Shown here: positions 11,151 through 40,287 of the stretch, piece after piece
How positions within the stretch are numbered: the stretch's first letter is position 1
Layout of the letters: each line of letters begins with the position of its first letter
IMG/VR virus record: IMGVR_UViG_3300008261_001827
Location: 1-44,893 of that record
Length of the DNA stretch: 44,893 nt
Reading direction: 5' to 3' (one strand)
Source: a virus
Lineage: Duplodnaviria > Heunggongvirae > Uroviricota > Caudoviricetes
The notes under the pieces: model-generated
Database searches by the model: none
What the model was told of the DNA's origin: nothing
The model's input: the letters and a program-made list of their open reading frames with translations, nothing else
Position numbers and translations under genes: made by a program

Positions 11151-11152
11151 TT

Positions 11153-13324: not shown

Positions 13325-14256
13325 ACACTACATTTATTATTAACGGCGGTGCAGGAAGAGTAATTGCAGCGATACCTGCATTAGAAAAATTTCATAGACT
13401 AAATCCAAAGAATGATTTTAGAGTAATCGTTCACGGGTGGCAAGACTTATATTGGAGCCATCCTATTCTTCAACCAAGAACGATAGGAATTCATCAAAAG
13501 AATATCTTTGAAGAGTACGTAAAGAATTATAATCTAGTGTGCCCAGAACCTTATTATATACACGACTACTACAATCAAAAGATATCACTAGCTGAAGCAT
13601 TTGACCGTCAAATAAATAATACGACGGATCATAAGGATCTCGAAAAGCCTAACCTATACATCAGCACCTATGAGCGTACATCTGTTCAGAGAATTGTTGA
13701 AGAGTTTAAGCAGATACATAAGAAGAATAAAGTAGTGGTATTTCAGCCTTATGGAAGTACTATGACGATTTCAAACAATAGACCATACGATATTTCAAAC
13801 AGAAGTTTAGATGTCGATGACTACTTAAAGATCGGAAAGTTTTTAAACGATAAAGACTGTCTAATCTTCTTCTTTGGTAACAGAGAACTCAAACATCCTG
13901 GAGATAACTTTAGCGCGGATCTAACTAACTTTAATCCTGAACTAAGAATGTACATGGCTCTAATAAGCGAGTGTGATTATTTCGTAGGATGCGATAGCGT
14001 AGGTCAACATATGGCTAGAGCTTTTGATAAACCCGGATCTGTGTTTATGGGTAGTACGTTTGAAAAGAACGTAAGTTATCCTGACCATTTTAAATTCTTT
14101 AGAAAACAGGGACAAGATCCAGTTTACAGTCCGATTCGCCTTGGTGGAGTAGAATCGGACTTCACGGACAGATTGAATGACGGAATCATGAATTTTTCTG
14201 CGAACGAAATTAACGAGTCCTGCCAAGTAATACTTAAAGACATATATGACGAATAA
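13321..14256 (+). CDS. GT9-like (heptosyltransferase-like) glycosyltransferase
   Basis: GGAGRVIAAIPAL, VVFQPYGS, CDYFVGCDSVGQHMARAFDKP; start 13321 by ATGA overlap. Confidence 0.72.
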   Translation: MNTTFIINGGAGRVIAAIPALEKFHRLNPKNDFRVIVHGWQDLYWSHPILQPRTIGIHQKNIFEEYVKNYNLVCPEPYYIHDYYNQKISLAEAFDRQINNTTDHKDLEKPNLYISTYERTSVQRIVEEFKQIHKKNKVVVFQPYGSTMTISNNRPYDISNRSLDVDDYLKIGKFLNDKDCLIFFFGNRELKHPGDNFSADLTNFNPELRMYMALISECDYFVGCDSVGQHMARAFDKPGSVFMGSTFEKNVSYPDHFKFFRKQGQDPVYSPIRLGGVESDFTDRLNDGIMNFSANEINESCQVILKDIYDE

Positions 14257-14267
14257 TTGGAGAATCT

Positions 14268-14813
14268 ATGAGTAACACAAATTTTTCTGTAAATCGTTCT
14301 GTAATTAATTATATCCACGCAAGAGACTACTTTCCGAAAGATGAAGTAGAACAACTTCGGCCTCTTGTGCAAGATGTGCATTGGGTAGATAAAAAGTTTG
14401 GTAAAGAGATGGAGCATTTCAATCTCATCTTCAACGACATCGATCTTGTAATCGGTAAGATGGTTGGCGACATAGTTGAGATAGATAGAGCAGCGTCAGG
14501 AACCCTTCGTAGAACAATACACGAAGTAATACACTTCGAAGATTTTGCAGACTTAAACGACTGGAGATTCGTCGTTTCACTCGAAGAAAATGAATTTAAG
14601 ACATATATACACAAAGATGGATATAAGAGTGTTCTTGATTTTATTAAAGATGAAGAGAGTCAAGATAAAGAACTCGACTATCTTAATAATGACGAATGGG
14701 AAGTAGAGACATCAATAAAAATGAAACCAAACGATGTCTTATTCTATCGCCCATGGATCTTTCATTCATTTCAAGACGGCATACTTCACTACTACAAATT
14801 AAAAGTATTGTAA
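14268..14813 (+). CDS. Hypothetical protein, possible DUF6445/2OG-Fe(II) oxygenase-like fold
   Basis: IHARDYFP start, VIHFED, and KPNDVLFYRPWIFHSF resemble double-stranded beta-helix oxygenases. Confidence 0.5.
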   Translation: MSNTNFSVNRSVINYIHARDYFPKDEVEQLRPLVQDVHWVDKKFGKEMEHFNLIFNDIDLVIGKMVGDIVEIDRAASGTLRRTIHEVIHFEDFADLNDWRFVVSLEENEFKTYIHKDGYKSVLDFIKDEESQDKELDYLNNDEWEVETSIKMKPNDVLFYRPWIFHSFQDGILHYYKLKVL

Positions 14814-14820
14814 GTGCATA

Positions 14821-15492
14821 ATGTCTATTAACGTTTATGTGGTTACTTCAACTATAGTTACAGGAATTGGCCACATAGATCCGCAGACTAGATTTTATGA
14901 AACTATCGAAACAATTAAGAGTATAAGAAAACAAGACAAAGATTCATATGTTATATTAATAGATAACTCTTTGTCTAAGTTGCCGGATGCTGAAGAGAAT
15001 TTAATATCGAGTATGGCTGACTATTACCTATACGTCGGAGATAGAAAGCAATGTATAGAATTCAACAAGAACGGAGTTCGTTCTGCCGGCGAAGCGTTTA
15101 TTCTTTTAGTATCCTTTGATGTTATTCGTAACGAAATTAGAAACGAAGTAAATAGAATATTCAAGGTGTCCGGAAGATACAGACTTACAGAAAGTTTTGA
15201 TCCGTTAGAGTACGACTCATTCAAAGGAAAATACTGTTTTAAGTCAAGAGAAGAAAACATGAGACACGATGAAACCGCGTGTTTCTTACATACACGCCTT
15301 TGGTCCTTTTGTTACACTTTATTAGATGACGCTAATGACTTATTAAGAAAGTCTCTTAAGACGATTTTTGAAAAAAATGTTAACATAGAAGAAGCCATGT
15401 TCGTTAACATAAATAAAAACTTGATAGCAGAAAAAGATATATTGCATTGTGAAGGTATGCTTGCTATGTGGAATGAAAAGGTATCAGAATGA
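14821..15492 (+). CDS. Hypothetical protein, possibly glycosyltransferase-related
   Basis: R..ETIETIKSIR, ILIDNS, RIFKVSGRY motifs recur in proteins of phage glycan islands; function uncertain. Confidence 0.55.
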   Translation: MSINVYVVTSTIVTGIGHIDPQTRFYETIETIKSIRKQDKDSYVILIDNSLSKLPDAEENLISSMADYYLYVGDRKQCIEFNKNGVRSAGEAFILLVSFDVIRNEIRNEVNRIFKVSGRYRLTESFDPLEYDSFKGKYCFKSREENMRHDETACFLHTRLWSFCYTLLDDANDLLRKSLKTIFEKNVNIEEAMFVNINKNLIAEKDILHCEGMLAMWNEKVSE

Positions 15493-15908
15493 AAGTATTC
15501 ATAAACGGAACTTTTGATATACTGCATCCTGGTCACATGCGGCTTATCACTTTTGCCTCAAACTACGGAGACTATCTAAAGATCGGCATAGACTCAGATA
15601 GTAGAGTTAAAAAACTAAAGGGCGCATCTCGACCAATCAATAACCAAGATACGAGAGCAACTATGCTTTTTCATGTGAAAGGCGTTGACGAAATTTCTAT
15701 CTTTGACAGTGAAGAAGAACTGATAAATATTATCAGAGAGTATGAACCGGACTATATGGTTGTCGGTTCTGACTACAGAAATAAAAAAGTGATAGGCAGC
15801 GAGTATGCAAAGAAACTGATATTCTTTGATAGAATAGAAGAATACTCTTCGACTCGAGTGATAGAAAAGATAAGAGATGAACGTACACTATGCGCTGCAA
15901 ACTTGTGA
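15489..15908 (+). CDS. rfaE2: D-glycero-beta-D-manno-heptose 1-phosphate adenylyltransferase (HldE C-terminal domain, stand-alone)
   Basis: NGTFDILHPGH, IDSDSRVKKLKGASRPIN, PDYMVVGSDY, SSTRVIEKI align with the HldE C-domain. Confidence 0.85.
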   Translation: MKVFINGTFDILHPGHMRLITFASNYGDYLKIGIDSDSRVKKLKGASRPINNQDTRATMLFHVKGVDEISIFDSEEELINIIREYEPDYMVVGSDYRNKKVIGSEYAKKLIFFDRIEEYSSTRVIEKIRDERTLCAANL

Positions 15909-16680
15909 TATCGCGTCAAACCAGGTAACCAAGAGATACTGCTGTGACACGAAACACGAGCTTATTCGAAAGTGCGTGTCTTCTTTCTTTCAATCAGTTC
16001 ACGAAGCAGCCAAAAGAGATAGATCTATTAATCATCGCATAGCAATATTCGACGATCATTCTACGCAAGAAACAGTTTACTTTATTCAAGAATGTGTTAA
16101 AATATATTCAAAAGAAAACGTTCAGGTTGAGCTGTATCATCTAGAAAACTTAGGCATAATGAATTCGATCCGCTCTTGCTACGAATGGCTATTGAGTAAT
16201 GGAACGGATTTAGTATACCAAGTTCAAGACGATTATCTTTTTGAAAAATCTGCGATAACCGAGGTCATTGATACATACTTTAGGATGCTGATTGAGACAA
16301 ACACGCAACCAATCGTAACACCCTATAATGCGCCGTATCTTTGGTCTGCCGTATATCGAAACAGTACTACTCCGAGAACGATCTTTATGGGAGAGAAGAG
16401 ATACTGGATTCAGATATACGACGTGTCTTGTTCGTTTTTAACGAGTCATCAAAATTTCATAAATAATAGTGATATACTCGAGAAGTTCTTAAATCTGGAT
16501 CCTCGAGATCCTGAACTTGAAAAGATCTCTCTCAATAAGATAATGGTAGAAAGAGGTTGTCTCGCAGTATGTCCGTTTGAAAGCATTGCTCTGCATATGC
16601 AAGGTGAATACGAGCGTGATCCGTATGTTGATTGGAAATTATTATGGGACTCTATAGATGAAGATATTATTACTAGGTGA
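15877..16680 (+). CDS. GT-A (GT2-like) glycosyltransferase
   Basis: IAIFDDHST, VYQVQDDYLF, SIALHMQ...DPYVDW; paralog of 12542-13324. Confidence 0.7.
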   Translation: MNVHYALQTCDIASNQVTKRYCCDTKHELIRKCVSSFFQSVHEAAKRDRSINHRIAIFDDHSTQETVYFIQECVKIYSKENVQVELYHLENLGIMNSIRSCYEWLLSNGTDLVYQVQDDYLFEKSAITEVIDTYFRMLIETNTQPIVTPYNAPYLWSAVYRNSTTPRTIFMGEKRYWIQIYDVSCSFLTSHQNFINNSDILEKFLNLDPRDPELEKISLNKIMVERGCLAVCPFESIALHMQGEYERDPYVDWKLLWDSIDEDIITR

Positions 16681-17401
16681 CAGCTGTTATGATTACTATC
16701 ACTACGGTGAAGTAAACCGTATTAGTCCAGAAGCTCCTATTCCGATCTTTGATCACGTATACACCAAGAAGAAACTTGGCATGATGTCAAACGTTCTTGA
16801 GAACTTTCGTTCTCTTGGAGTAAATCCTGACTATCAGACGTATTTCTTTGAGAATAAGAATCGTTATATAGATGTAAAATCAAAACAACAGTTGCTTCGT
16901 GTAGATCAAAGGATTGAAGAAGAGGGTATTGATACTATCATATATGATGGCGTTCAGTTTAATGAATACGATGCAATCGTTATCTCTGACTATGATAAGG
17001 GATTCGTTAGTTATGACGACATTAAGCGGATACGTCAAGAGTTCAAAGGTCCTGTCTTTATAGATACCAAAAAGAAGTACCTCGCAGATATAGGCAACTG
17101 CTTTGTTAAGATTAACCAATACGAACACAAGAACTTAATTTCAGAGCCAAAACCAGAAAACCTTATCGTCACTCGCGGCGATGATGGCGCGGTATGGAAT
17201 AATGTATTATACTTCTCACCAAGAGTAGAAGCACATGATGTATGCGGCGCCGGAGACACATTCCTTGCAGCCCTCGTGTTTGAATACCTTCGTAAGGACT
17301 GCGATATGGAATCGGCAATATTATTCGCAATGAAAGCAGCGGCAGTTACTGTTCAGAAGATCGGTGTATATGCGCCAACTTTAAAAGAGATAGAAGGATA
17401 A
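16658..17401 (+). CDS. rfaE1: Heptose 7-phosphate kinase (HldE N-terminal PfkB domain, stand-alone)
   Basis: GD...D.Y.YG...RISPEAPIP, QQLLRVD, VISDYDKG, DVCGAGDTF. Confidence 0.88.
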   Translation: MKILLLGDSCYDYYHYGEVNRISPEAPIPIFDHVYTKKKLGMMSNVLENFRSLGVNPDYQTYFFENKNRYIDVKSKQQLLRVDQRIEEEGIDTIIYDGVQFNEYDAIVISDYDKGFVSYDDIKRIRQEFKGPVFIDTKKKYLADIGNCFVKINQYEHKNLISEPKPENLIVTRGDDGAVWNNVLYFSPRVEAHDVCGAGDTFLAALVFEYLRKDCDMESAILFAMKAAAVTVQKIGVYAPTLKEIEG

Positions 17402-17407
17402 CATATA

Positions 17408-18046
17408 ATGCGTTATAATGTGATTAATCATTTAGCCGCGGCTTACTATGACAATAATTGTTCATATCTTGAGATTGGAGTAGAGCACCCCGAAAATTGT
17501 TTTAATCTCATAAACGCATCGAAAAAATGTTCTGTCGATCCGCAAAAGACAAGACCAGAAGTTCATATTGACTATCAAATGACTTCTGACGAATTCTTTG
17601 AGAAGTTGCGTAATAAGAAGACTGAGTTTGAACCCGATCACAAGTGGGACATCATCTTTATAGACGGCCTTCACTTAGCAGATCAAGTATATCGTGACAT
17701 ACAAAATGCGATTAATCACTGTAAAGGATTTGTAGTTTTACACGACTGTGGTCCAGAAAATTTTTATAATGCGCATTCTGACTATAAATTTTTCAAAGAA
17801 AACGGCGGAGCGTGGTGTGGAACCACATGGAAAGCTTTCTATAAGTTTAGGACTGAAACATACCTAAAGACTTATACCGTCGACATAGATTATGGAATTG
17901 GAGTCATAGAGATGAACTCTGAGGGAACACCAATAAAGCTAGATAATCCGTGGTTTGAATATGGAAAGTTTAAAAACAACATGACTCTAGACTTAGGCTT
18001 AATTACACCTATTCAATTTATAAATGATCATCCTATTAAGGAGTAG
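17408..18046 (+). CDS. Class I SAM methyltransferase (Methyltransf_24-like)
   Basis: YLEIGV, DIIFIDGLHLADQVYRDI, VVLHDC, GTTWKA. Confidence 0.8.
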   Translation: MRYNVINHLAAAYYDNNCSYLEIGVEHPENCFNLINASKKCSVDPQKTRPEVHIDYQMTSDEFFEKLRNKKTEFEPDHKWDIIFIDGLHLADQVYRDIQNAINHCKGFVVLHDCGPENFYNAHSDYKFFKENGGAWCGTTWKAFYKFRTETYLKTYTVDIDYGIGVIEMNSEGTPIKLDNPWFEYGKFKNNMTLDLGLITPIQFINDHPIKE

Positions 18047-18050
18047 TGAA

Positions 18051-18422
18051 ATGACAAGACTTAACGGATTTGTAGAAAAGGGTTGGGGCCACGAACTTAT
18101 TTGGGCCACTAACGATAAGTATTGTGGAAAGCTTCTAAACTTTAATGCTGGCGCAAAGTTTTCAATGCATTTTCACAGAGAAAAAGACGAGACTTGGTAT
18201 GTGCTATCTGGAGAATTTATAGTTCATTGGATAGATACAGAAAACGCTAAGAGACATTCTTTAGTACTTACTACCGGATCAACTTGGAGAAATACACCGC
18301 TTCAACCCCATCAGATAGAATGTCTCCAAGAAGGTACTATTATTGAAGTTTCAACGCCGGATTCTGTAGAGGATAATTACAGAATAATGCCGGGCGACAG
18401 TCAAAAGGAAGTTACATTATGA
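18051..18422 (+). CDS. Cupin-fold protein (sugar isomerase-like)
   Basis: KGWGHELIW, FSMHFHREKDETWYVLSG, PLQPHQI; AAGGAG RBS supports start 18051. Confidence 0.78.
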   Translation: MTRLNGFVEKGWGHELIWATNDKYCGKLLNFNAGAKFSMHFHREKDETWYVLSGEFIVHWIDTENAKRHSLVLTTGSTWRNTPLQPHQIECLQEGTIIEVSTPDSVEDNYRIMPGDSQKEVTL

Positions 18423-19444
18423 AAAGAATATTGATTACTGGCGGAGCCGGATTTATTGCTCACCACCTAGTATGTAAAGTGCTCAGAGAGACAGACTGGG
18501 AGATCGTTACTCTCGATAGATTGGACTACAGCGGCAATCTTAATCGCCTCCACGACTCACTACAAGAGTTCGACAGTGAAACGCGCAAGAGAGTAAGCGT
18601 GGTGTTTCACGACCTTAAAGCTGATATGAACCCGCTCGTTCGTTCAGAAGTAGGAACTGTAAACTACATCGCTCACCTCGCGGCAGGATCGCACGTGGAT
18701 CGTTCAATCGACTATCCGATGGAGTTCGTTCTCGATAACGTAGTTGGAACGTGTAATATACTCGAGTTTGCAAGATCGCAGAAGAGTAACCTTGAGAGAT
18801 TTATATACTTCAGTACGGATGAAGTCTTTGGTCCTGCGCCTGATGGAATTAAGTATGGTGAAAACGATCGCTATAACTCTACTAATCCTTATAGTGCGTC
18901 AAAAGCAGGCGGAGAAGAACTTGCCGTTGCGTATGAGAACACATACGGTCTTCCGATCTATATCACTCATACCATGAATGTCTTCGGTCAGAGACAACAT
19001 CCAGAGAAGTACATACCAATGTGCATTAAGCGAGCTCGTGATGGTGAGAAGATTACAATCCACAGCGATAGAACAAAAACGATCCCAGGATCCCGTCACT
19101 ATATTCATGCAGAAGACGTTGCTGACGCTGTTCTATTCCTTCTTAAGAACCAATTCGATTTAAAGACAGAATGGGGTGGAGCTAAGTGTCCTAAATTTAA
19201 CATCGTCGGCGCAGAAGAGATCAATAACTATGAACTCGCAAAGATCATTGCCGATGCACAGGGTAAGGAACTCAACTACGAGTTTGTTGACTTCCACTCG
19301 AGCCGCCCAGGTCACGACCTTCGTTATGCTCTAGATGGAAGCAAGATGAAGAATCTTGGATGGGAACCTGCTACATCAGTTCGTGAGAGAATTGCAGAAG
19401 TAGTGAAGTGGACTCTAGAAAATGAGAGATGGCTAAAGACATGA
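18419..19444 (+). CDS. rfbB: dTDP-glucose 4,6-dehydratase-like extended SDR
   Basis: TGGAGFIA, HLAAGSHVDRSI, STDEVFG, YSASK, RPGHDLRYALD. Confidence 0.82.
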   Translation: MKRILITGGAGFIAHHLVCKVLRETDWEIVTLDRLDYSGNLNRLHDSLQEFDSETRKRVSVVFHDLKADMNPLVRSEVGTVNYIAHLAAGSHVDRSIDYPMEFVLDNVVGTCNILEFARSQKSNLERFIYFSTDEVFGPAPDGIKYGENDRYNSTNPYSASKAGGEELAVAYENTYGLPIYITHTMNVFGQRQHPEKYIPMCIKRARDGEKITIHSDRTKTIPGSRHYIHAEDVADAVLFLLKNQFDLKTEWGGAKCPKFNIVGAEEINNYELAKIIADAQGKELNYEFVDFHSSRPGHDLRYALDGSKMKNLGWEPATSVRERIAEVVKWTLENERWLKT

Positions 19445-20229
19445 AAGTACTCGTTACAGGAACAAACGGATTTATAGGTCAGAACCTAATCAAAAAATTA
19501 CCATCTGATTGGGAGTTGGTTAAGTTTGATATTAAGGACTATCCAGACACGCGTCCAAAGTATCTAGATTTTAGCAATCTTGACTGGGTAATCCACCTCG
19601 GAGCTCTAAGCTCAACCACTGAGAAGGATGCTAGAAGAGTGATGGACCTAAACCTTGCGTGGTCCATCGAACTCGCAGAAGAATGCGAGAAACATAATGT
19701 GAATTTGCAATGGTCTTCGTCCGCATCTGTCTACGGAAACAAGTATAAGTGTCCGGTTGACGAGAGCAAAACTGTGTATCCTCTCAATCTATACGCAATG
19801 AGTAAGTATTTCTTCGAAGAGTATATGAGATCAAAAGCTCATAAATTTATATGGCAAGGATTTCGTTACTTCAATGTATACGGCCCGTGCGAAGATCATA
19901 AAGGATCTCAGGCCAGTCCGTATAATCAATTCGCGAGACAAGCTCGCGAGACTGGCGTCATTCGAGTGTTTGAAGGTTCTGAAAACTATAAGAGAGACTT
20001 CATACACGTTGATCGTGTAGTAGACGTACATCTTAAAATGATTGAGAAGAAAGAGAGTGGTATCTTTAACCTAGGCTCAGGATCTACTCGCAGCTTTCTT
20101 GACGTTGCGAGAGACGTCGCTCTTATGTACAATGCTAGTATAGAGACAATACCATTTCCTGATCATCTGAGATCTCACTATCAGGAGTATACTCATGCGG
20201 ACATGTACAAATTAAATATGCTTCTCTAA
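19441..20229 (+). CDS. hldD: ADP-L-glycero-D-manno-heptose 6-epimerase
   Basis: HLGALSSTTE, PLNLYAMSK, GFRYFNVYGP..HKGS.AS, FEGSENYKRDF, SGIFNLGSG, IPFPD closely follow HldD/RfaD. Confidence 0.9.
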   Translation: MKVLVTGTNGFIGQNLIKKLPSDWELVKFDIKDYPDTRPKYLDFSNLDWVIHLGALSSTTEKDARRVMDLNLAWSIELAEECEKHNVNLQWSSSASVYGNKYKCPVDESKTVYPLNLYAMSKYFFEEYMRSKAHKFIWQGFRYFNVYGPCEDHKGSQASPYNQFARQARETGVIRVFEGSENYKRDFIHVDRVVDVHLKMIEKKESGIFNLGSGSTRSFLDVARDVALMYNASIETIPFPDHLRSHYQEYTHADMYKLNMLL

Positions 20230-20256
20230 TTCTATTATCCTTATCCGATAAATCTC

Positions 20257-20284
20257 ATTATATCTGAATTATTGAAAATGTCAA
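20257..20284 (-). promoter_or_regulatory. Sigma70-type promoter TTGACA-N16-TATAAT, antisense to island 1
   Basis: + strand attata (20257-62), 16 nt, tgtcaa (20279-84); no ORF with RBS downstream on the minus strand. Confidence 0.7.
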
Positions 20285-20295
20285 CTAAAATAATA

Positions 20296-20339
20296 GGCAT
20301 ACACTCTTTTATAAATAGAAACAAAAAAGAGTGTATGCC
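20296..20339 (+). promoter_or_regulatory. Late promoter TATAAATA (20310-20317) at the loop of a perfect 15-bp inverted repeat
   Basis: ggcatacactctttt (20296-20310) and aaaagagtgtatgcc (20325-20339); 3' arm ends just before ATG 20342. Confidence 0.8.
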
Positions 20340-20341
20340 AA

Positions 20342-20680
20342 ATGACGACTATAGCAAACCTATACGTAGACCAAGGCGTCGATTATTCGATTGACCTATT
20401 TCTCACCACAACCGCCGGTGAAGAGTATGACGCTTCGAATAAATCATTTTACTGTAACATAAAGAAATTATATTCTTCTTCAATTTCCGCAAACGCTGAG
20501 ATCGCTAGTTTTCTTAGCGCGAATACTGGTATGATAGAATTATACATTTCACCAGAAACATCCGAAGCTCTCGATCCTGGTAAGTATACATATGATATAA
20601 TCATGATGAGTCAAGGCGGAACTCGAGTTAAAGTTTTAGAAGGTCTTATGTTTATCTTGCCAACGGTCACAAGGGTATAA
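20342..20680 (+). CDS. Small virion structural protein (T4-like phage conserved)
   Basis: MxxIANLYVDQG...GKYTYDI...KVLEG...PTVT pattern common in T4-like phage structural modules. Confidence 0.7.
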   Translation: MTTIANLYVDQGVDYSIDLFLTTTAGEEYDASNKSFYCNIKKLYSSSISANAEIASFLSANTGMIELYISPETSEALDPGKYTYDIIMMSQGGTRVKVLEGLMFILPTVTRV

Positions 20681-20683
20681 GAC

Positions 20684-20929
20684 ATGTCGGAAACGGTAAG
20701 AGTTACGGTTGGAAGTGAAAGACTAAGAGTTAATGCCGTTGTTGGCAACGAAAAACCTAGAGTTTTTACAAACCAGACAAACTTAATAGTAAGAAGACTT
20801 AGAGATCTGGCAGATGTAGATATGAATACAAATGCTGACGGTTCTATTTTGGTTTACGACTCTGCTTTACAGAAATTTATCGCAACAACAACACTCAGCG
20901 AGCAGGTCATAGATGGCGGCACCTACTGA
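20684..20929 (+). CDS. Small hypothetical fibre-associated protein
   Basis: LRDLADVD...DGSILVYD...KF and C-terminal IDGGTY motif. Confidence 0.65.
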   Translation: MSETVRVTVGSERLRVNAVVGNEKPRVFTNQTNLIVRRLRDLADVDMNTNADGSILVYDSALQKFIATTTLSEQVIDGGTY

Positions 20930-20932
20930 GTA

Positions 20933-20940
20933 AATAAATA
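20933..20940 (+). promoter_or_regulatory. Possible late promoter variant (AATAAATA)
   Basis: Intergenic taaataaata upstream of 20977. Confidence 0.35.
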
Positions 20941-20976
20941 AAGAAAACGACCACATAAAAAGAGTCGAAGAACAAC

Positions 20977-22599
20977 ATGGCCGCTATAATAAAGCATAAA
21001 AGAAGCTCTATTTCAGATAGAGTCCCAACAGTATCGGATCTTGAACTAGGTGAACTCGCCATCAACACCTATGATGGCAACATTTTCTTAAAGAGAAACC
21101 AGGATGGTGATGAAGCCATCATAACGTTTCTTGCTAGCAATCCTGTAAGAAATGTTGTTTACGTTCAAAAGAACGGTGATGATACGAACAGCGGAACATC
21201 TTGGGACGGCGCGTATGCCACAATAGAGAAGGCGCTCGAAGACGCGGCAGACAGAGAAGAAGAAGAAGTCACTCTTATTGAAATAGGCCCAGGCAGGTAT
21301 ACGACACAGGGTCATTTAGATGTGCCAGACAATGTTGTTATTCGAGCAGCTCATAGAAGCGCATTCATAAGCCCTGTCACCGGGTATGAAGAAAGAAACG
21401 TGTTCCGCCTAGGTTCTGGTTGCTTTGTTGAAGGTTTAGTATTCGACAATTGGCGTCTTGATAGTTTGGATAATCCAACAGAAGGTTTTGCGTTCTGTTT
21501 TAGACCAGGTGCAGTAATTCGTAGAGCGCCATACGTTCATAAGGTTGTAGTTAGAACAACTCCATTCTGGGATACTGTTGCGCCACCTTTGGACAGAGAT
21601 AATGCAAATCCACTTATTGGTAGGGGTGCCGGTGTTATTATAGCCGATGGGTCCGTATGTTCAGCATATAGTATCTACCCAAACATTATGGCTTGGGGCG
21701 CTACACCAGTCTCTCATAATGGTATTGGGTATGTCGCAAGGAACGGTGGACTCATTAATGCTGTTAATGCAGTTAGTATGTGGGCACACAAACATTTTCT
21801 TGCTCTTGATGGCGGGCAAATTATTTTATCTTCTTGCTCTACTCAATTCGGCGACTATACTATGGTCGCGGACGGATCAAGAAACATCGTTGTTCCTACA
21901 GAAGTAGCAGAGGGATCATTATCAATACAGACAGCTGCATCAAATGCCGTCTCTGCGGCTAGAACAACAATTATAAATGCTACTTGGAATAATCTCGTGT
22001 CTGGTGGATACACTAACGGGTGGACTGCACAGGACGAAGAATTTATCAGAAGAGAAGCTGCCGCATTTCTTCAGTCAATTGTGTGGGTTCTGCAGACTGC
22101 GAATGAAAAACCAATGCTAGATTTTGCAAAAGGTCTGTTTGATACTATCGGCGAAAAGGTGTATGCAGAGTCAAAAGAAAACGCAATTATACACTCGTTC
22201 GAGTTTATGAGAAACACTATTATTGCATTAGCAAACGTTAATTCTGCTTCAGACACGATAGTAACTAACCTGGTCTCTGCATTAATAGACACGATCGAAG
22301 ATACGAATAGAGTTTCCGAGCCTTCTACGATCACGGCGATAGGCCACACATGGACAGCACTCATGGCCGGTGTCGCGCTAACAAAAATACCACCTGCTAG
22401 AAATTTTGCGACCATCGAAGAAAGTATACTCGAGTTAAATAATGGCATAGTCATTGCGTCTGGCCAAGACGATCAAGGATCGGCTCTCTTCATTGGTGGC
22501 ATGAAGATCGATGCAGATACTGGCGAACTTACGGGTCCTCCATTTGAACAATCAGTTAATAGAATTGCAACTAGAGCAGCAATCGCAAGGAGTTTTTAA
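20977..22599 (+). CDS. Fibre/spike protein with Mtd-N-like head and probable beta-helix domain
   Basis: IKHKRSS...VPTVSDLELGELAINTYDGNIF N-terminus; VYVQKNGDDTNSG.SW..AYATIEKAL is a pectin-lyase-like entry motif. Confidence 0.65.
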   Translation: MAAIIKHKRSSISDRVPTVSDLELGELAINTYDGNIFLKRNQDGDEAIITFLASNPVRNVVYVQKNGDDTNSGTSWDGAYATIEKALEDAADREEEEVTLIEIGPGRYTTQGHLDVPDNVVIRAAHRSAFISPVTGYEERNVFRLGSGCFVEGLVFDNWRLDSLDNPTEGFAFCFRPGAVIRRAPYVHKVVVRTTPFWDTVAPPLDRDNANPLIGRGAGVIIADGSVCSAYSIYPNIMAWGATPVSHNGIGYVARNGGLINAVNAVSMWAHKHFLALDGGQIILSSCSTQFGDYTMVADGSRNIVVPTEVAEGSLSIQTAASNAVSAARTTIINATWNNLVSGGYTNGWTAQDEEFIRREAAAFLQSIVWVLQTANEKPMLDFAKGLFDTIGEKVYAESKENAIIHSFEFMRNTIIALANVNSASDTIVTNLVSALIDTIEDTNRVSEPSTITAIGHTWTALMAGVALTKIPPARNFATIEESILELNNGIVIASGQDDQGSALFIGGMKIDADTGELTGPPFEQSVNRIATRAAIARSF

Positions 22600-22601
22600 T
22601 C

Positions 22602-23066
22602 ATGGCACGTATTACATGTAGAACGCCATCAACCGGAAAACCTTTAAGAATAGCGCAGAATAGTGTAGCTAACACATTTCAAGTAATTGCAGAAGCACCT
22701 GACTTCTCTCTTCCAGACGCATCAAACAAATATTCTGAAAGAGATCCGGCCGACGCTTCACGAGCTATACGCCCTGGAGAGATCTTTTTGCTTACGCCAA
22801 TCTCTGCTAGAAATAAAGATTCTGTTGATAGGTGGATTGAAGTCGTTTTTGTAACTGAAGGTGGTACAACTATTGAAATAGGAAAGATAGAAGTTCCGGC
22901 TGGTGACACTGCGTTTATTCCTATTCAGGGCAGAAGTTTGTTTAAGAGAACGGCATCTAATGCAAATGGCGATAGACTTCAAGTTAGAGCAGAAGTGTCC
23001 GGCGTATTTGATGTTATGGTGGCCGCAGAAGAAAGACTGTCAAGCGAACATAGCGGAGTGGTGTAA
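22602..23066 (+). CDS. Hypothetical virion protein
   Basis: Tightly packed + strand ORF between fibre genes; beta-rich. Confidence 0.65.
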   Translation: MARITCRTPSTGKPLRIAQNSVANTFQVIAEAPDFSLPDASNKYSERDPADASRAIRPGEIFLLTPISARNKDSVDRWIEVVFVTEGGTTIEIGKIEVPAGDTAFIPIQGRSLFKRTASNANGDRLQVRAEVSGVFDVMVAAEERLSSEHSGVV

Positions 23067-23071
23067 GTTAG

Positions 23072-26000
23072 ATGACAGAATTTTTATCAGGAATGAATTT
23101 ATCAGGTAAAGTAAAAAAGACACCTCCTACAGAAGTGTCTCCGGATAGATACAAGTATATTAAACTTTCTGAAACAGAACCAGATCTCGGTGTTCCAGAA
23201 GCAAATAACTATGTTCTTGCGTCTGATACAGAAGGAAATCGCTTTTGGTTAGAGACGAGTGGAGTTCAAGGAACAACTGGCCTTCAAGGTGAGCAAGGTA
23301 CGCAAGGAGTTGAAGGATCTCAGGGTACACAGGGTACTCTTGGTATACAAGGCGAACAAGGTACACAGGGATCTCAAGGCACGCAAGGTCTACGGGGAGA
23401 CCAAGGTCTTCAGGGTACTCTTGGTATACAAGGTGAGCAAGGTACACAAGGATCTCAGGGTGCACAGGGTACTTTTGGTATACAAGGTACGGATGGCAAC
23501 TTTGGCGGGGCATCGTTTGATTACACCTATAGCACTTCCATTATTCAATCTGACCCAGGCACCGGAAGATTAAAGTTCAATGATGCAGACATAACGACTG
23601 CAATTAGAATGTTCATCGATGACACAGATGACAACGGTATTGATATTCAATCATTTTTAAGAACAATCGATGATTCTACTTCAACGATTAAAGGACACTT
23701 TAGAGTATCTAACAGAACTGCGTCTCAACGATTCGCTCTCTATACAATTTCATCTATATCAGAAGAAGCAGGGTTTTTCTTAGTTAACTGTGGGTATGTA
23801 TCTGGGTCAGTTAATAACTTTAATGATAACGAAGATATTATCATTACATTTGCTAGAACTGGAGATATTGGAGATATTGGACCACAGGGCGTGCAAGGTG
23901 CGCAAGGTGTTCAGGGAACTCGGGGTCTTCAAGGCGAACAAGGTCTTCAAGGAACGCAGGGCACTCAAGGTTTCCAAGGTACTACTGGGCCACAAGGCGT
24001 TCAAGGCACAACCGGAACTCAAGGAACGACTGGAACCCAAGGTACTATTGGAACACAAGGTCTTCAGGGAACACAAGGTACCCAGGGTACTACTGGTACA
24101 CAAGGTACAACTGGGACGCAGGGAAATAATGGATCGCAAGGTCTACAAGGAACACAGGGTGAACAGGGAACCCAAGGCGAACAAGGTATTCAAGGTACTC
24201 AGGGAACCCAAGGCGAACAAGGTATTCAAGGTATTACCGGGACGCAGGGTTTTCAAGGAACATCTGGATTTCAGGGAATTCAGGGAACCGCGGCCATAGA
24301 CGGAGCAGAAGGTTCTCAGGGTACGCAAGGTCTCCAGGGTACACAAGGAACTGTCGGATCTCAGGGTCTCCAAGGCGAACAGGGCACTACTGGAACACAG
24401 GGTTTTCAAGGCACGCAAGGTCTTCAAGGAGAACAGGGAACACAAGGACTCCAAGGCAATCAAGGTGAACAAGGACTTCAGGGAACTCAGGGTGAACAAG
24501 GACTCCAAGGCAATCAAGGTGAACAAGGACTTCAGGGAACTCAAGGTACCCAAGGTATCCAAGGCGAACAAGGTACTCAAGGTACTCAAGGTCTTCAAGG
24601 CGAGCAGGGTACTCAAGGTCTTCAAGGCGAACAAGGTACTCAAGGTCTTCAAGGCGAGCAGGGAACTCAGGGAACACAAGGTCTTCAAGGTACTCAAGGT
24701 GAGCAGGGCACTCAAGGAACACAAGGTCTTCAGGGAACGCAGGGAACTCAAGGCACGCAAGGTACTCAAGGTCTTCAAGGCGAACAAGGTATTCAAGGTC
24801 TCCAAGGCATCGAGCTCGTATTAAATTATATTGGATCATGGGTGCAGGCTAGCTATGTAAAAGATACTGTTGCTGTAAGCACGGTTGATGGTAACACTTA
24901 TGTATCAAAGCAAGTCATCACGTCTGTTTATCAGGACCCTGCGGTTAATACTACTGAATGGGAACTATTTGTTCTACAAGGAACTCAGGGTCTTCAAGGT
25001 GAGCAGGGAACTCAGGGTCTTCAAGGTGAGCAGGGAACTCAGGGTCTTCAAGGTGAGCAGGGAACTCAGGGTCTTCAGGGTGAGCAGGGAACTCAGGGTC
25101 TTCAGGGTGAGCAAGGTACACAAGGACTTCAGGGTGAGCAGGGAACTCAGGGTCTGCAGGGAGATCAAGGTCTTCAAGGTAATTTTGGTATACAAGGTAT
25201 ACAAGGATCTACCGCAGGAGATGCTGCAACTCTAGACGGATTGGATAGTCTTCAATTCGTAAGATCCGATGTTAGCACCACGATGACCGGTGGTTTCTTA
25301 ACTCTTGCACAAGATCCATCTGGTAATCTACAAGCCGTCACAAAACAGTATGTAGATACACTAGTATCTGCGGCTATACATTATCACGACCCAGTTAGAG
25401 TAGAGTCACCAATCTCTCTTAATGCTATTTATGATAACGGAATATCAGGAGTTGGCGCTACATTAACGAATGGCGGAACTCAGCTAGGTCTTATTATAGA
25501 TGGAATTACGCTAAGTACTGACAACCGTGTTCTTTTATATCAACAAGCTAACACGGCTCATAACGGCGTGTATACAGTCACAGATACTGGTTCTGCAAAT
25601 ACTGATTGGGTTCTTACTCGTTCAACCGATACAGATTCTTACAGCCCAAGCGATTCTGGAAGTATAGGTAGAGGCGACGCGTTTTACGTCCTAGAAGGTA
25701 ACACCGGAGCCGGCGAACTCTATGTACTGACCACAGAAGGAGTCATTACATTTGGAAGCACTGGCATAAACTTCTCACAGATAAGCTCTTCACAGATTTA
25801 CAAAGCAGGCGCTGGATTAGAACTCAATGGTGTTGAGTTTTCTATTAATCCAGATGCGAATATTATAGTAAGTGGAGTTACAATACAAAGTATAGGACCT
25901 GTAATAAACTCAAGCGGTACGTGGGTTGGAGATCCAACTAATTTACAGGGAGCTCAGGGTACAACCGGATCGCAAGGTCTTCAAGGATCTCAAGGTACGG

Positions 26001-28174
26001 CTGCTGTAGACGGATTAGACGGTGCTCAAGGTCTTCAGGGAACTCAAGGCACGACTGGATCACAAGGAACAACAGGAACTCAGGGAGTTCAAGGAACTAC
26101 TGGATCTCAAGGTCTTCAGGGATCACAAGGAACTCAGGGTGAACAAGGTATTCAAGGAACTCAAGGTACTACTGGATCTCAAGGTACTACTGGATCTCAA
26201 GGCCTCCAAGGAACTCAGGGTACTACCGGAACTCAAGGTCTTCAGGGAACTCAAGGTACAACTGGAACTCAGGGTACTACCGGAACTCAAGGTATTCAGG
26301 GAACGATTGGTACCCAAGGTACTACTGGAACACAAGGTATTCAAGGTACTACCGGAGTTCAAGGAACTACTGGATCTCAAGGTCTTCAGGGATCACAAGG
26401 AACTCAGGGTGAACAAGGTATTCAAGGAACTCAAGGTACTACTGGATCTCAAGGTACTACTGGAACTCAGGGAACTACAGGATCTCAAGGTATTCAGGGA
26501 ACGCAAGGTACAACTGGATCTCAAGGTACGACTGGATCTCAAGGAACTCAAGGACTTCAGGGTGAGCAGGGAACACAAGGTACAACTGGTATTCAAGGTA
26601 CTACCGGTGCGCAAGGTACAACTGGATCTCAAGGTCTTCAGGGAACACAGGGAACTACAGGATCTCAAGGTCTTCAGGGAACACAGGGAACTACAGGAAC
26701 ACAAGGTACGACTGGAACTCAGGGAACTACAGGAACTCAGGGAACTACAGGATCTCAAGGTCTTCAGGGAACACAGGGAACTCAGGGTCTTCAAGGTGAG
26801 CAGGGAACTCAGGGTCTTCAGGGTGAGCAGGGAACTCAGGGTCTTCAGGGAACACAGGGAACTCAGGGTCTTCAAGGTACACAAGGAACTCAGGGTCTTC
26901 AAGGTACACAAGGAACTCAGGGTCTTCAGGGTGAGCAGGGAACTCAGGGTCTTCAGGGTGAGCAGGGAACTCAGGGTCTTCAAGGTGAGCAGGGAACTCA
27001 GGGGGCAACTGGTACACAAGGTACAACTGGTACACAAGGTACAACTGGTACACAAGGAACAACCGGTACCCAAGGAACTACTGGATCGCAAGGTATTCAA
27101 GGAACTACCGGAACTCAAGGAACAATCGGTACACAAGGAACAACCGGTACCCAAGGAACTACTGGATCGCAAGGTATTCAAGGAATTACTGGAACTCAGG
27201 GTACTACCGGTACACAAGGCACGACTGGAACTCAGGGAACTACAGGAACGCAAGGAACAACCGGTACCCAAGGAACAACAGGAACGCAAGGTGCTACTGG
27301 ATCGCAAGGTCTTCAAGGTACGACTGGATCGCAAGGTATTCAAGGAACTACCGGAACTCAAGGAACGTCTGGGACTGGTGCACAAGGTATTTCAGGTGGA
27401 TCTACTAGTTGGATCTTAAGAACTACCAATTACACTGCGGTTTCTGGTGATAGAATACTCACGAACACGGCCGGCGGAACATTTACAATTACACTCCCAG
27501 CTACACCCGCCACAGGAGCGTTCGTTGTAATCGCTGACGCTAACGATTGGTCAGCTATAAATCTAACGGTCGCAAGAAACGGAAGCACTATCGAAGGCAT
27601 AGCTGATGATATTACAATGGACGTTAAAGGCTTTTCTGTAGAGTTTGCTTATGACGGTACAACTTGGGAAATATTTACTGCGATTGGTCTTCAAGGAGCG
27701 CAAGGTACAACCGGCTCACAGGGTATACAAGGTCCTACCGGCCCATCTACTACGATCAACGCGGTTGACGTATCAGATGACGATACAGTTTTCCCGGTGT
27801 TTGTAACAGCCGCTGGTTCAAATCAACTCGCAGAAGTTTCTACGACTAGACTATATTTCAATCCTTCGACCGGAGATCTGTCGGCAACTAACTTTAACTC
27901 ACTTTCAGACGTAACATTTAAAGAAAACTTTAAGTCTATCGATAACAGCTTTGATATTCTAGAACAAATAAATACGTATAGTTTCGATTGGAAAGATAAC
28001 AAGACAAAGAGCTACGGTGTGATTGCGCAAGAACTAGAAAAGATCATGCCAGAGCTTGTAAAAACAAACGGAAGTGGTTTAAAGACAGTTACATATACTC
28101 CACTTATTGCAATCTTGATTGAAGCAGTTAAGAAACTAAAAGCTGACGTAGAAAACATAAAGAGAGATAACTAA
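23072..28174 (+). CDS. Collagen-like long fibre protein with C-terminal intramolecular chaperone (peptidase S74)
   Basis: Gly-X-Y blocks at ~23261-23510, 23861-24810, 24980-25210, 25949-27400; SD..FKEN...FDWK...GVIAQELE.IMPELV...LIEAVK tail. Confidence 0.9.
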   Translation: MTEFLSGMNLSGKVKKTPPTEVSPDRYKYIKLSETEPDLGVPEANNYVLASDTEGNRFWLETSGVQGTTGLQGEQGTQGVEGSQGTQGTLGIQGEQGTQGSQGTQGLRGDQGLQGTLGIQGEQGTQGSQGAQGTFGIQGTDGNFGGASFDYTYSTSIIQSDPGTGRLKFNDADITTAIRMFIDDTDDNGIDIQSFLRTIDDSTSTIKGHFRVSNRTASQRFALYTISSISEEAGFFLVNCGYVSGSVNNFNDNEDIIITFARTGDIGDIGPQGVQGAQGVQGTRGLQGEQGLQGTQGTQGFQGTTGPQGVQGTTGTQGTTGTQGTIGTQGLQGTQGTQGTTGTQGTTGTQGNNGSQGLQGTQGEQGTQGEQGIQGTQGTQGEQGIQGITGTQGFQGTSGFQGIQGTAAIDGAEGSQGTQGLQGTQGTVGSQGLQGEQGTTGTQGFQGTQGLQGEQGTQGLQGNQGEQGLQGTQGEQGLQGNQGEQGLQGTQGTQGIQGEQGTQGTQGLQGEQGTQGLQGEQGTQGLQGEQGTQGTQGLQGTQGEQGTQGTQGLQGTQGTQGTQGTQGLQGEQGIQGLQGIELVLNYIGSWVQASYVKDTVAVSTVDGNTYVSKQVITSVYQDPAVNTTEWELFVLQGTQGLQGEQGTQGLQGEQGTQGLQGEQGTQGLQGEQGTQGLQGEQGTQGLQGEQGTQGLQGDQGLQGNFGIQGIQGSTAGDAATLDGLDSLQFVRSDVSTTMTGGFLTLAQDPSGNLQAVTKQYVDTLVSAAIHYHDPVRVESPISLNAIYDNGISGVGATLTNGGTQLGLIIDGITLSTDNRVLLYQQANTAHNGVYTVTDTGSANTDWVLTRSTDTDSYSPSDSGSIGRGDAFYVLEGNTGAGELYVLTTEGVITFGSTGINFSQISSSQIYKAGAGLELNGVEFSINPDANIIVSGVTIQSIGPVINSSGTWVGDPTNLQGAQGTTGSQGLQGSQGTAAVDGLDGAQGLQGTQGTTGSQGTTGTQGVQGTTGSQGLQGSQGTQGEQGIQGTQGTTGSQGTTGSQGLQGTQGTTGTQGLQGTQGTTGTQGTTGTQGIQGTIGTQGTTGTQGIQGTTGVQGTTGSQGLQGSQGTQGEQGIQGTQGTTGSQGTTGTQGTTGSQGIQGTQGTTGSQGTTGSQGTQGLQGEQGTQGTTGIQGTTGAQGTTGSQGLQGTQGTTGSQGLQGTQGTTGTQGTTGTQGTTGTQGTTGSQGLQGTQGTQGLQGEQGTQGLQGEQGTQGLQGTQGTQGLQGTQGTQGLQGTQGTQGLQGEQGTQGLQGEQGTQGLQGEQGTQGATGTQGTTGTQGTTGTQGTTGTQGTTGSQGIQGTTGTQGTIGTQGTTGTQGTTGSQGIQGITGTQGTTGTQGTTGTQGTTGTQGTTGTQGTTGTQGATGSQGLQGTTGSQGIQGTTGTQGTSGTGAQGISGGSTSWILRTTNYTAVSGDRILTNTAGGTFTITLPATPATGAFVVIADANDWSAINLTVARNGSTIEGIADDITMDVKGFSVEFAYDGTTWEIFTAIGLQGAQGTTGSQGIQGPTGPSTTINAVDVSDDDTVFPVFVTAAGSNQLAEVSTTRLYFNPSTGDLSATNFNSLSDVTFKENFKSIDNSFDILEQINTYSFDWKDNKTKSYGVIAQELEKIMPELVKTNGSGLKTVTYTPLIAILIEAVKKLKADVENIKRDN
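24980..25168 (+). repeat. Seven tandem 27-nt units (GTQGLQGEQ) in the collagen gene
   Basis: ggaactcagggtcttcaaggtgagcag, first three copies identical; same unit recurs at 26777-26803. Confidence 0.9.
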
Positions 28175-28560
28175 TGCCAATATCACTAAAAAATGCTATT
28201 TCTCCTAACGTTGGTGTTGTTAAATCCTGGGTAAAAATAACAAGTAACTACACGGCGCTGAATGGTGATAAACTCATTGCTGATACGTCGGCCGGGTCCT
28301 TTACGGTGACTATGCCATTTTCACCTTCTCCTGGGCATGCCGTGCAGATTACCGACGGTGGAAGTTGGCTAATAAATAACTTGCTAGTTAACTTTAACGG
28401 CGCGACTATCGAAGGCATAAATGATACACTGTCTGTTAACATACCACAAACAACCGTAGAGTTTGTTTATGACGGCACTACATGGCAATTTATTTCAAAT
28501 ATTGGTGCGAGAGGCTCTAGCGATGAAGCTGCAGCTTTCGCTATAGCATTAGGATTCTAA
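28174..28560 (+). CDS. Small fibre-associated protein, paralog of a domain in the collagen fibre
   Basis: NYTA..GD....DTSAGSFTVT.P..P..G...DGTTW matches the domain at 27410-27676. Confidence 0.75.
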   Translation: MPISLKNAISPNVGVVKSWVKITSNYTALNGDKLIADTSAGSFTVTMPFSPSPGHAVQITDGGSWLINNLLVNFNGATIEGINDTLSVNIPQTTVEFVYDGTTWQFISNIGARGSSDEAAAFAIALGF

Positions 28561-28570
28561 AGGAAAAATT

Positions 28571-31480: not shown

Positions 31481-31491
31481 GGGATTAAAAT

Positions 31492-31857: not shown

Positions 31858-31873
31858 TAGTACCGATTTCATT

Positions 31874-31881: not shown

Positions 31882-31931
31882 AATGTAGTTGACAGAACTT
31901 ACATTCATATTATGAGGAATTTGATTACATC

Positions 31932-32996: not shown

Positions 32997-32997
32997 T

Positions 32998-38677: not shown

Positions 38678-39424
38678 ATGAAGATAGTACTTGTAACTGG
38701 TGGTTTCGATCCCCTTCATAGCGGTCATATTGCATACTTTAATGAAGCAAAAGAACTCGGAGATATTCTAATAGTTGGAGTAAATAGTGACGAATGGCTG
38801 ACTCGTAAAAAGGGTCAGCCATTCATGAGTCTATCAGAAAGAGTTGCGATCGTTGAGAGCCTTCATATGGTCGATAGTGTCATGATATTTGACGATAGTG
38901 ACGGCGGGGCGTCCGAAGCGATTAAGCTGTGTCTAGGAAAGTATCCACACGATGAAATCATTTTTGCGAACGGTGGTGATAGAACCGATAGCAATATTCC
39001 GGAAATGAGTATCGTAGACAGCCGACTATCGTTTGTGTTTGGAGTCGGTGGAACTCATAAGATGAATTCTAGCAGTAAGATCCTTACTGAGTGGAAGACA
39101 CCTAAGACGGAAAGAAAGTGGGGATACTATCGAGTCCTACACTCGGACGGTCCTTCTACAAAAGTAAAAGAACTCATAGTCGAGCCAGGAAAGTCTCTCA
39201 GTCTTCAGAGACATAGTTTTAGAAACGAACTATGGTACGTTACAAATGGTACCGGTGCTATCAAACTAAACGGAGTGTTGTCGCCTTTAAAGAAAGGCGA
39301 CTTTGTAAACATATATGTTTCTGACTGGCACCAACTCATTAACGATTCTTCTGAAGAACTAAAGATTGTTGAGATCCAGTATGGACAGAACTGCTACGAA
39401 GAAGATATCGAGCGCATCGAGTAA
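38678..39424 (+). CDS. Cytidylyltransferase-like domain fused to MannoseP_isomer-type cupin
   Basis: TGGFDPLHSGH, GVNSDEWL.RKKG, FANGGDR; RKWGYYRVL...KVKEL.VEPGKSLSLQRH. Confidence 0.82.
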   Translation: MKIVLVTGGFDPLHSGHIAYFNEAKELGDILIVGVNSDEWLTRKKGQPFMSLSERVAIVESLHMVDSVMIFDDSDGGASEAIKLCLGKYPHDEIIFANGGDRTDSNIPEMSIVDSRLSFVFGVGGTHKMNSSSKILTEWKTPKTERKWGYYRVLHSDGPSTKVKELIVEPGKSLSLQRHSFRNELWYVTNGTGAIKLNGVLSPLKKGDFVNIYVSDWHQLINDSSEELKIVEIQYGQNCYEEDIERIE

Positions 39425-39458
39425 GTATATACTACCGGCTTGATAGATGTTAAATCTA

Positions 39459-39486
39459 ATTATATCAGATATTTCACATATGTCAA
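39459..39486 (-). promoter_or_regulatory. Sigma70-type promoter TTGACA-N16-TATAAT, antisense to island 2
   Basis: + strand attata (39459-64), 16 nt, tgtcaa (39481-86); same layout as 20257-20284. Confidence 0.7.
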
Positions 39487-39500
39487 CCAAAAAATGTGGT

Positions 39501-39537
39501 TCATCTTCTTTTATAAATAGATCAAAAAGTAGGGTGA
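39501..39537 (+). promoter_or_regulatory. Late promoter TATAAATA (39512-39519) inside an imperfect hairpin covering the gp13 RBS
   Basis: tcatcttctttt pairs with aaaagtagggtga (two G-U pairs, one bulge); ATG at 39544. Confidence 0.7.
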
Positions 39538-39543: not shown

Positions 39544-40287
39544 ATGGCACGTCCTTCAACAAGAAGCGAATTCAAAGATTATGTTCTTAGAAAGATCGGT
39601 GCGCCAGTCATTCAGATCAACGTTTCTGATGAACAGATAGAAGATCGTATTGACGAGGCAATAGCATTCTGGAGAGACTACCACTATGATGGTAGCCAGA
39701 TGATATATCTTAAGCATGCTCTAACACAACAAGAGATAGATCAGGGATATATCGAAGTACCACAAAACATTCTCGGTATCACTCGTATCTTTGATCTTAG
39801 CTCTTCTATCTCGACCGGTACCGGCTTCTTCAACGTTCAATACCAATTCGTTTTGAACAACCTAGAAGACATTACTGGGTACAACATTCAGCATTACTAC
39901 ATGGCTCTATCTCACCTACAGTTCCTGCAAGAAATACTTGTAGGCCGCCCTCTCATAAGATACAATCGCCATGTAAACCGTTTATATGTAGATGTAAATA
40001 AGGCCATATTGAATCCTGGGTCGTTTATCATTATAGAGGGATATGACATTATTGATGGCAACACATACTCCGACGTATGGAGCGATCGCTTTCTTCAGAA
40101 CTATGCGTCTATCTTAATACGCGAGCAGTGGGGTGTAAACCTAACTAAGTTTACAAACATGCAACTTATCGGAGGTGTTCAGTTCAACGGCGAACAGATC
40201 CTATCGGAAGCAAAAGCAGACCGCAAAGAGATGGAAGAAAATGCGAAGACTTCACTTCAACCACTCGTTTACAATTTCGTTGGATGA
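39544..40287 (+). CDS. gp13: Neck protein gp13
   Basis: MARPSTR.EFKDYVLRKIGAPVIQINV..EQIEDRIDEA...YHYDG; EQWG.NL.KF..MQL.GGV.FNG. Confidence 0.92.
   Translation: MARPSTRSEFKDYVLRKIGAPVIQINVSDEQIEDRIDEAIAFWRDYHYDGSQMIYLKHALTQQEIDQGYIEVPQNILGITRIFDLSSSISTGTGFFNVQYQFVLNNLEDITGYNIQHYYMALSHLQFLQEILVGRPLIRYNRHVNRLYVDVNKAILNPGSFIIIEGYDIIDGNTYSDVWSDRFLQNYASILIREQWGVNLTKFTNMQLIGGVQFNGEQILSEAKADRKEMEENAKTSLQPLVYNFVG

Follow-up and report, generated by a model that had tools for sequence, protein, structure and literature searches.

What is a perfect bacterial promoter doing directly behind a viral gene, pointing back into it? Timed gene expression has its textbook example in the T4-type phages. In one of them, the question is raised by two intergenic gaps of the window, i.e., the whole 44,893-nt stretch analysed here, which makes up the opening 44.9 kb of an IMG/VR record of 111 kb that is about 53% complete. 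The record comes from an uncultured T4-like myovirus, with gp13/gp14 neck proteins, baseplate and fibre genes, and T4-type late promoters that read TATAAATAG. Its coding strand is the plus strand across 1-55 kb and the minus strand for most of 55-111 kb. DNA nearly identical to the record was found in freshwater and lake metagenomes of many studies, and a nucleotide search of GenBank phages with the window gave no match.

Two sigma70-type sites at the ends of sugar-enzyme islands

Island 1 is made up of the genes from 9260 to 20229 (~11 kb) and island 2 of those from 31932 to 39424 (~7.5 kb). Sugar-modifying enzymes are found in both, as the initial annotation had assumed in calling them glycan enzymes: the islands encode methyl-, sulfo- and glycosyltransferases, an HldE-like kinase and adenylyltransferase, a dTDP-glucose-dehydratase-like enzyme and an HldD-like epimerase. 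The epimerase gene at the end of island 1 (TAA stop at 20227-20229) matches TIGR02197 with an E value of 6e-68, which is under the curated cut-off, and is called HldD-like. Late-type promoters head both islands. The late sense promoter that had been proposed at 9145 does read TATAAATAG, and GATAAATAAATG stands ahead of 31932; this late-like sequence (31870-31895) is conserved in G004, the closest complete relative (218 kb). The start of island 2 also has a plus-strand TTGACA, at 31889, but it was rejected as an early sense promoter, as it is kept neither in G004 nor in G001. In the 1700-aa gene at 23072-28174, the metagenome contigs are joined in many alternative ways, skip segments and have a high summed depth across 23700-27700. 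This region consists of Gly-X-Y-like (collagen-like) repeats, and the array is either variable or difficult to assemble.

The window holds two perfect matches to TTGACA-N16-TATAAT, both on the minus strand (20284..20257 and 39486..39459). Shuffling gave a mean of 0.04 perfect matches, and two or more were reached in 0 of 100 shuffles; a chance origin of the two sites is excluded. Each agrees in 12 of 12 bases with a sigma70-type promoter (TTGACA and TATAAT, 16-18 nt apart) and has a 16-nt spacer. The initial annotation had described the first site, just past the HldD-like stop, as a perfect promoter followed by no minus-strand open reading frame with a ribosome-binding site, and both observations are upheld. 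After either copy, the minus strand offers just unled frames of 39 to 48 aa within the opposing genes. The annotation had also taken the second site for the same element with the same spacer. The element and the spacer length do recur, but the spacer sequences are identical at only 8 of 16 positions. Outside the hexamers, the two copies have only GATATAAT-N-AGATTTA and a T-tract on the upstream side of the -35 in common.

Both sites have the same surroundings (Table 1). Each sits in a gap of 112-119 nt that separates two plus-strand genes. From left to right, the gap contains the stop codon, a leader with a dyad, the -10, the spacer, the -35 and an A/T tract, then a hairpin with the plus-strand late promoter TATAAATA in its loop, and finally the start of a structural gene. 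The -10 lies 27 nt beyond the stop of 19429-20229 in copy 1 and 34 nt beyond the stop of 38678-39424 in copy 2. The dyad of copy 1 (TTATC-g-GATAA, 20251..20241) is the weakest of the family described below, and the tract at 20285..20295, read on the minus strand, doubles as the U-rich tail of a hairpin. The assembly was checked with contigs of four DNA runs over 19700-39699, and contigs from two independent studies confirmed it, carrying both sites with zero differences. In Rfam, no match reached the gathering score, and sub-threshold hairpin look-alikes alone appeared at 20286-20343.

Table 1 Features of the two junctions, with positions in the window
Feature	Position	Strand	Remarks
HldD-like sugar epimerase gene	19429..20229	+	Last gene of island 1; antisense copy 1 points into it
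Initial transcribed region, copy 1 (predicted)	20230..20256	-	From the -10 to the HldD-like stop; AGATTTA and small dyad
Cassette copy 1	20257..20284	-	-35 at 20284..20279, 16-nt spacer, -10 at 20262..20257, both perfect; predicted start near 20250
A/T tract	20285..20295	-	Abuts the -35 of copy 1 upstream; UP-element-like
Perfect 15-bp hairpin	20296..20339	+	Late promoter TATAAATA in the loop (20310-20317); 3' arm abuts the start of gene 20342
First structural-module gene past island 1	20342..20680	+	phrog_1084, tail-fibre-assembly-like; late promoter at 20310
Adenylyltransferase (HldE-domain-II-like) plus cupin gene	38678..39424	+	Last of island 2; faced by antisense copy 2
Dyad TAGAT-ttaac-ATCTA	39444..39458	-	Begins with the first base past the -10 of copy 2; spans the predicted start
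Cassette copy 2	39459..39486	-	-35 at 39486..39481, 16-nt spacer, perfect TG-extended -10 at 39464..39459; predicted start near 39452
T-tract CACATTTTTTGG (minus-strand reading)	39487..39499	-	Upstream of the -35 of copy 2
RNA hairpin	39501..39537	+	Late promoter TATAAATA in the loop (39512-39519); gp13 ribosome-binding site in the 3' arm
gp13-like neck protein gene	39544..40287	+	Late promoter at 39512

The whole 111-kb record has three perfect matches, and the third is likewise antisense to a gene. It lies outside the window, at 95868-95895 (+) of G000 C1 (L003:1501-1528), within a late unit, inside a conserved gene of 184 aa. Its hexamers and their spacing are kept in G004 and G001 despite differing residues of the protein (YYTGLEEDVN vs HYNTLSKDVN). 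It has a T-tract, and a dyad followed by an A-run, in common with the cassettes of two related loci, L046 and L047.

Conservation and anatomy of the cassette family

Conservation at the island-2 end was surveyed without a motif filter, in the DNA ahead of gp13 of 80 related loci from IMG/VR. Perfect hexamers with an unrelated spacer of 16 or 17 nt were found in L009, L010 (and six near-copies of it), L017, L022, L024-L035, L037-L040 and L048. The gp13 of these phages is 68-94% identical to that of the window. In G004, the orthologous copy (L085) follows the same cupin gene, and a 1718-aa gene is inserted before gp13; L042 also has the cassette past its cupin gene. Beside the same cupin gene, the cassette is absent from L011, L018-21 and L023 of the unfiltered survey. 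At the unfiltered orthologous junctions inspected, it was either perfect or absent, with no decayed copies. The end of island 1 gives the same picture. In L089, whose epimerase is 79% identical, a perfect TTGACA-N16-TATAAT with a different spacer is followed by a late promoter and a homologue of gene 20342. G004 is without island 1 at that junction, where it has a plain terminator and a late promoter and no cassette; a strong terminator stands in place of the cassette at both G004 junctions without it that were examined. The motif search at the island ends of relatives was therefore positive for both islands. Perfect hexamers combined with diverged spacers at the island ends argue for a selected promoter. 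Judged from the sequences, the conservation pattern is that of a working promoter, and decay is excluded.

The breakpoint of the 1718-aa gene indel in G004 (39500-39545 compared with L085:6040-6080 and L005:2900-3003) coincides with the late-promoter motif TTTTATAAATAGA. This suggests that late promoters also serve as exchange points.

A curated family of 29 cassettes was assembled from related IMG/VR phages and covers five kinds of site. No base of either hexamer varies (2.0 bits). The cassette list was built partly by motif search, so that the case for invariance rests mainly on the unfiltered junction survey. The spacer measures 16 nt in 27 of the 29 cassettes, and these 27 spacers have an average pairwise identity of 0.40. 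Three bases upstream of the -35, a CATTTTT-like T-tract reaches 1.1-1.4 bits across the cassettes with a 16-nt spacer, and AGA(A/T)TTA comes after the -10. The cassette can thus be described as a unit of about 45-70 bp: a CATTTTT-like tract, 3 nt, TTGACA, a variable 16-nt spacer, TATAAT, and AGA(A/T)TTA with a dyad.

The dyad is a perfect inverted repeat from the first base past the -10 in 19 of 21 distinct copies, with a mean stem length of 5.0 where shuffles give 1.6 +/- 0.4. The family contains at least eight different dyad sequences, which amounts to compensatory change. As the predicted start lies within the dyad, the repeat could not fold fully in an antisense RNA, and it is left unexplained by an antisense-promoter model. 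A function as a terminator on the sense strand was rejected: the AU-rich hairpins reach -1 to -3.8 kcal/mol, no better than shuffles. The operator of one repressor is also unlikely, as the copies within G004 differ (TAGAT/ATCTA, CAGAAT/ATTCTG and AGCA/TGCT).

Certain cassette types are common to several loci. The uvsW cassette of G001 and its gp13 copy b are 77% identical over 83 nt, and so are the G004 uvsW cassette and the L010 gp13-site cassette. Four relatives (L017, L022, L025 and L027) have tandem cassettes about 94-104 bp apart upstream of gp13. The segment between the copies of L025 and L027 can be folded as a hairpin followed by a T-run, with which the first copy could give a transcript of about 60 nt; conservation of this segment does not extend to L017 or L022. 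A small protein or peptide encoded after the promoters was rejected as well, the 15-aa frame between the tandem copies of L025 being missing in L027, L017 and L022.

Orientation, neighbouring genes and known systems

All IMG/VR contigs were scanned with two extended patterns, and each distinct match was classified by its neighbouring ORFs. The matches with both T-tract and dyad face the 3' end of a convergent gene in 13 of 13 distinct cases. In the stop-proximal copies with a dyad, the stop codon lies 29-31 nt beyond the -10, and the AGATTTA-type members at the cupin and uvsW ends have the same orientation, with the stop 24-35 nt away. Each dyad-bearing copy stands back-to-back with the promoter of the next gene. 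Of 70 generic matches without a dyad, no more than 13 fall into the class 'antisense only', the majority being ordinary sense promoters followed by a ribosome-binding site and ATG. Most matches to TTGACA-N16-TATAATAGAATTA in IMG/VR were rejected as ordinary sense promoters of unrelated phages, and family membership was restricted to those with T-tract and dyad.

The cassette family is not specific to glycan islands. In L046 and L047, a cassette is located between gp13 and gp14, and in G001, G002, G004 and L128 it directly follows uvsW, back-to-back with the sense sigma70-like promoter of the next gene. The uvsY-uvsW pair upstream of it is headed in G001 by a sigma70-like promoter rather than a late one. 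At the uvsW 3' ends of L086, L087, L103 and L128, the cassette is directed into the end of uvsW. In T4, uvsW is the gene of the R-loop helicase and is expressed only late; a brake by antisense transcription that acts on uvsW alone would be biologically sensible.

The neighbourhood of uvsY and the R-loop helicase gene also recalls a function in DNA events. The promoters could prime an R-loop replication origin, as T4 ori(uvsY) and ori(34) do, or mark a sliding-clamp loading point that activates the adjacent late promoter. Such a function would suit orphan promoters that serve no gene, as well as the fact that the island-end cassettes always adjoin a late promoter. However, T4 origins use MotA-type middle promoters, with a Mot box near -30 and an unwinding element. 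The -35 region here is TTGACA and not the TGCTT Mot box, and no clear AT-rich unwinding element was seen by eye past the first 20-60 nt. At least three origins, all abutting stop codons, would moreover be unexpected. Priming of DNA events is thus considered highly improbable.

The early region at 55-111 kb contains at least 10 sense promoters of another class. They consist of a T-run, cta, TT(G/T)ACA, a nearly invariant 17-nt spacer (ttcgtttagaatcagtR) and a weak -10, TATTCT or TAGATT. Examples are found in the gaps 59716-59776, 73244-73314, 74118-74384 and 85928-85995 (G000 C1, outside the window). The conserved spacer suggests that it is read by a factor. A search for AsiA (PF09010) in G000, G001, G002 and G004 gave no match, the control genomes being equally silent. 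The antisense cassettes have the front end of T-run, cta and TTGACA in common with this class, but differ by their free spacer and perfect -10. The sense-oriented perfect promoters of the relatives also start with ctaTTGACA; most of them have 17-nt spacers, and they are without the CATTTTT tract. In the 74118-74384 gap, a GC-rich terminator hairpin ahead of the early promoter makes up a classical PeSL.

T4-type phages carry cassettes known as promoter-early stem-loops or PeSLs (Arbiol et al. 2010, PMC2839356; Comeau et al. 2014, PMC4122927), for which Arbiol et al. showed cassette-to-cassette deletion circles (PMC2839356). Like them, the cassettes described here are small composites in which a near-perfect sigma70 promoter is combined with an A/T-rich tract and a stem-loop or T-run. 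They too exist in several diverged copies per genome, border on variable gene blocks (relatives differ in whether they have the islands) and include cassette types common to several loci. On the minus strand, the upstream stem-loop of copy 1 reaches -23.2 kcal/mol and has a U-rich tail; copy 2 has a T-run only (z -0.9). In contrast, a PeSL points towards the gene under its control, whose Shine-Dalgarno sequence and start codon form its last part. The antisense cassettes serve no ORF, always face the 3' end of a convergent gene inside late/structural regions, and have a variable 16-nt spacer and a start-site dyad.

These likenesses invite the idea that the cassette is chiefly a PeSL-type DNA module, mobile or prone to recombination, which marks sites of modular gene exchange, its promoter activity being incidental or the relic of a lost backward-facing accessory gene. 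The 77% identical cassette pairs and the tandem duplicates mentioned above agree with it. Relatives, furthermore, retain a GGGAG-N2-ATG/GTG vestige that resembles the ribosome site and start codon of the PeSL layout (PMC4122927), and G004, which is without island 1, is also without the cassette there. However, conservation is limited to the hexamers, the T-tract and a few flanking bases, and invariant hexamers with free spacers are the signature of a promoter, not of a recombination site. Copies 1 and 2 are 51% alike over 83 nt and therefore too dissimilar for homologous exchange, and the indel between G000 and G004 at gp13 breaks at the late promoter, not at the sigma70 cassette. A DNA module with incidental promoter activity appears unlikely on balance.

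Transcription opposite late genes has a classical precedent in the 'anti-late RNA' of T4, for which, to our knowledge, neither defined promoters nor a function have been described. Antisense transcription of T4 gene 32 and of CfrI in cyanophage S-PM2 is cited in PMC3014915 and PMC2984593, and early antisense RNAs over the structural genes of PAK_P3 were read as damping untimely expression (PMC4933390). All are cases of non-coding transcription opposite late genes by the host polymerase, as is predicted here, with damping of untimely expression as the proposed role. They were discovered at the RNA level, and most of their promoters are undefined; the cassettes, in contrast, are known from DNA, with a promoter that is defined, conserved and at a fixed distance from the stop.

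The explanation offered in the initial annotation is of this kind. Antisense RNA or convergent transcription was to keep the entire glycan island silent early on, up to the takeover by the late sense promoter, which makes each island a temporally gated cassette. The same idea was put forward for PAK_P3 (PMC4933390), and it is in keeping with the conservation of the cassette at both island ends and with the late-type promoters that head the islands; this part of the proposal stands. The gating itself is weakened by family members behind uvsW, between gp13 and gp14 and within a gene, and by relatives that carry the same cupin gene without the cassette. There is also nothing obvious to silence early, because no conserved early sense promoter heads the islands. 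Finally, a very long antisense RNA would be required for silencing to extend from the 3' end across 11 kb or 7.5 kb. An early gate on the whole islands is therefore judged distinctly improbable.

Possible role of the cassettes

The cassette belongs to a clade of uncultured freshwater T4-like myoviruses, in which it lies inverted, directly after the last stop of a transcription unit. The sequences establish how it is built, that it is conserved, that it exists as a family of copies, and that its geometry is constant. With a confidence slightly above even, we regard the cassettes as selected host-sigma70 promoters that launch non-coding antisense transcription at the boundaries of transcription units. 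Recognition by sigma70 is inferred from the promoter sequence.

The RNA polymerase of the host, with its sigma70, would start near 20250 and 39452, and the putative non-coding transcript would enter the 3' end of the upstream unit in antisense. Its most likely role would be boundary control. Polymerase collision, RNA pairing or both would counteract sense transcription and mRNA that arrive from the unit upstream, and the sugar-enzyme island would thereby be uncoupled from the structural gene that follows. The cassette would then act as a PeSL, i.e., a terminator/promoter cassette, turned backwards, or as a source of T4-type 'anti-late' RNA.

The plus-strand hairpins at both junctions fit with a boundary role. 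The hairpin at 20296..20339 reaches -22.1 kcal/mol on the plus strand (z -9.3) and is about as stable on the minus strand (-23.2 kcal/mol, z -8.2). The one at 39501..39537 has -10.8 kcal/mol on the plus strand (z -2.1) and z -0.9 on the minus strand; it folds on the plus strand only, because G-U pairs are needed. For T4 genes e, soc and 49, it is known that translation of read-through RNA is blocked, the late promoter lying inside a hairpin that sequesters the ribosome-binding site (PMC3014915). As in T4 e, soc, 49 and I-TevI (PMC3014915), both junctions have the late promoter in the loop and the ribosome-binding site or start in the 3' arm, an arrangement in which the site is exposed solely in transcripts begun at the late promoter. 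The junctions would thus hide the ribosome site of the structural gene in read-through RNA, as those of T4 e, soc and 49 do. Unlike the antisense promoter, this hairpin is a partner element on the plus strand and is moderately conserved in relatives.

Some observations speak against the antisense model. The islands appear to be driven by late-type promoters alone, which makes the need for an early block doubtful, and some relatives are without the cassette at the same junction. Furthermore, a promoter of perfect consensus may be poor in escape, so that it may be mainly a roadblock of bound polymerase instead of a source of RNA. In a more far-reaching proposal, the cassettes would be a dedicated family of mobile 'orphan' consensus promoters, placed about 30 nt past stop codons and always backwards, where the bound or firing host polymerase insulates the unit and replaces a terminator. 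Supercoiling between divergent promoters or an R-loop might help to fire the adjacent late promoter, and the dyad would be a later off-switch. This version is seen as a minor possibility, improbable as it stands.

The analysis defines a promoter family that is conserved, always antisense and fixed beside stop codons across many uncultured lake phages. As a concrete object of about 120 bp, the junction lends itself to synthesis and to assays of antisense or insulator activity that need no phage culture. If the cassettes prove to be boundary elements, they would offer a compact part for synthetic biology. For the phages themselves, they would represent a terminator-independent way to separate acquired accessory blocks, e.g., virion-glycosylation genes, from essential structural operons.
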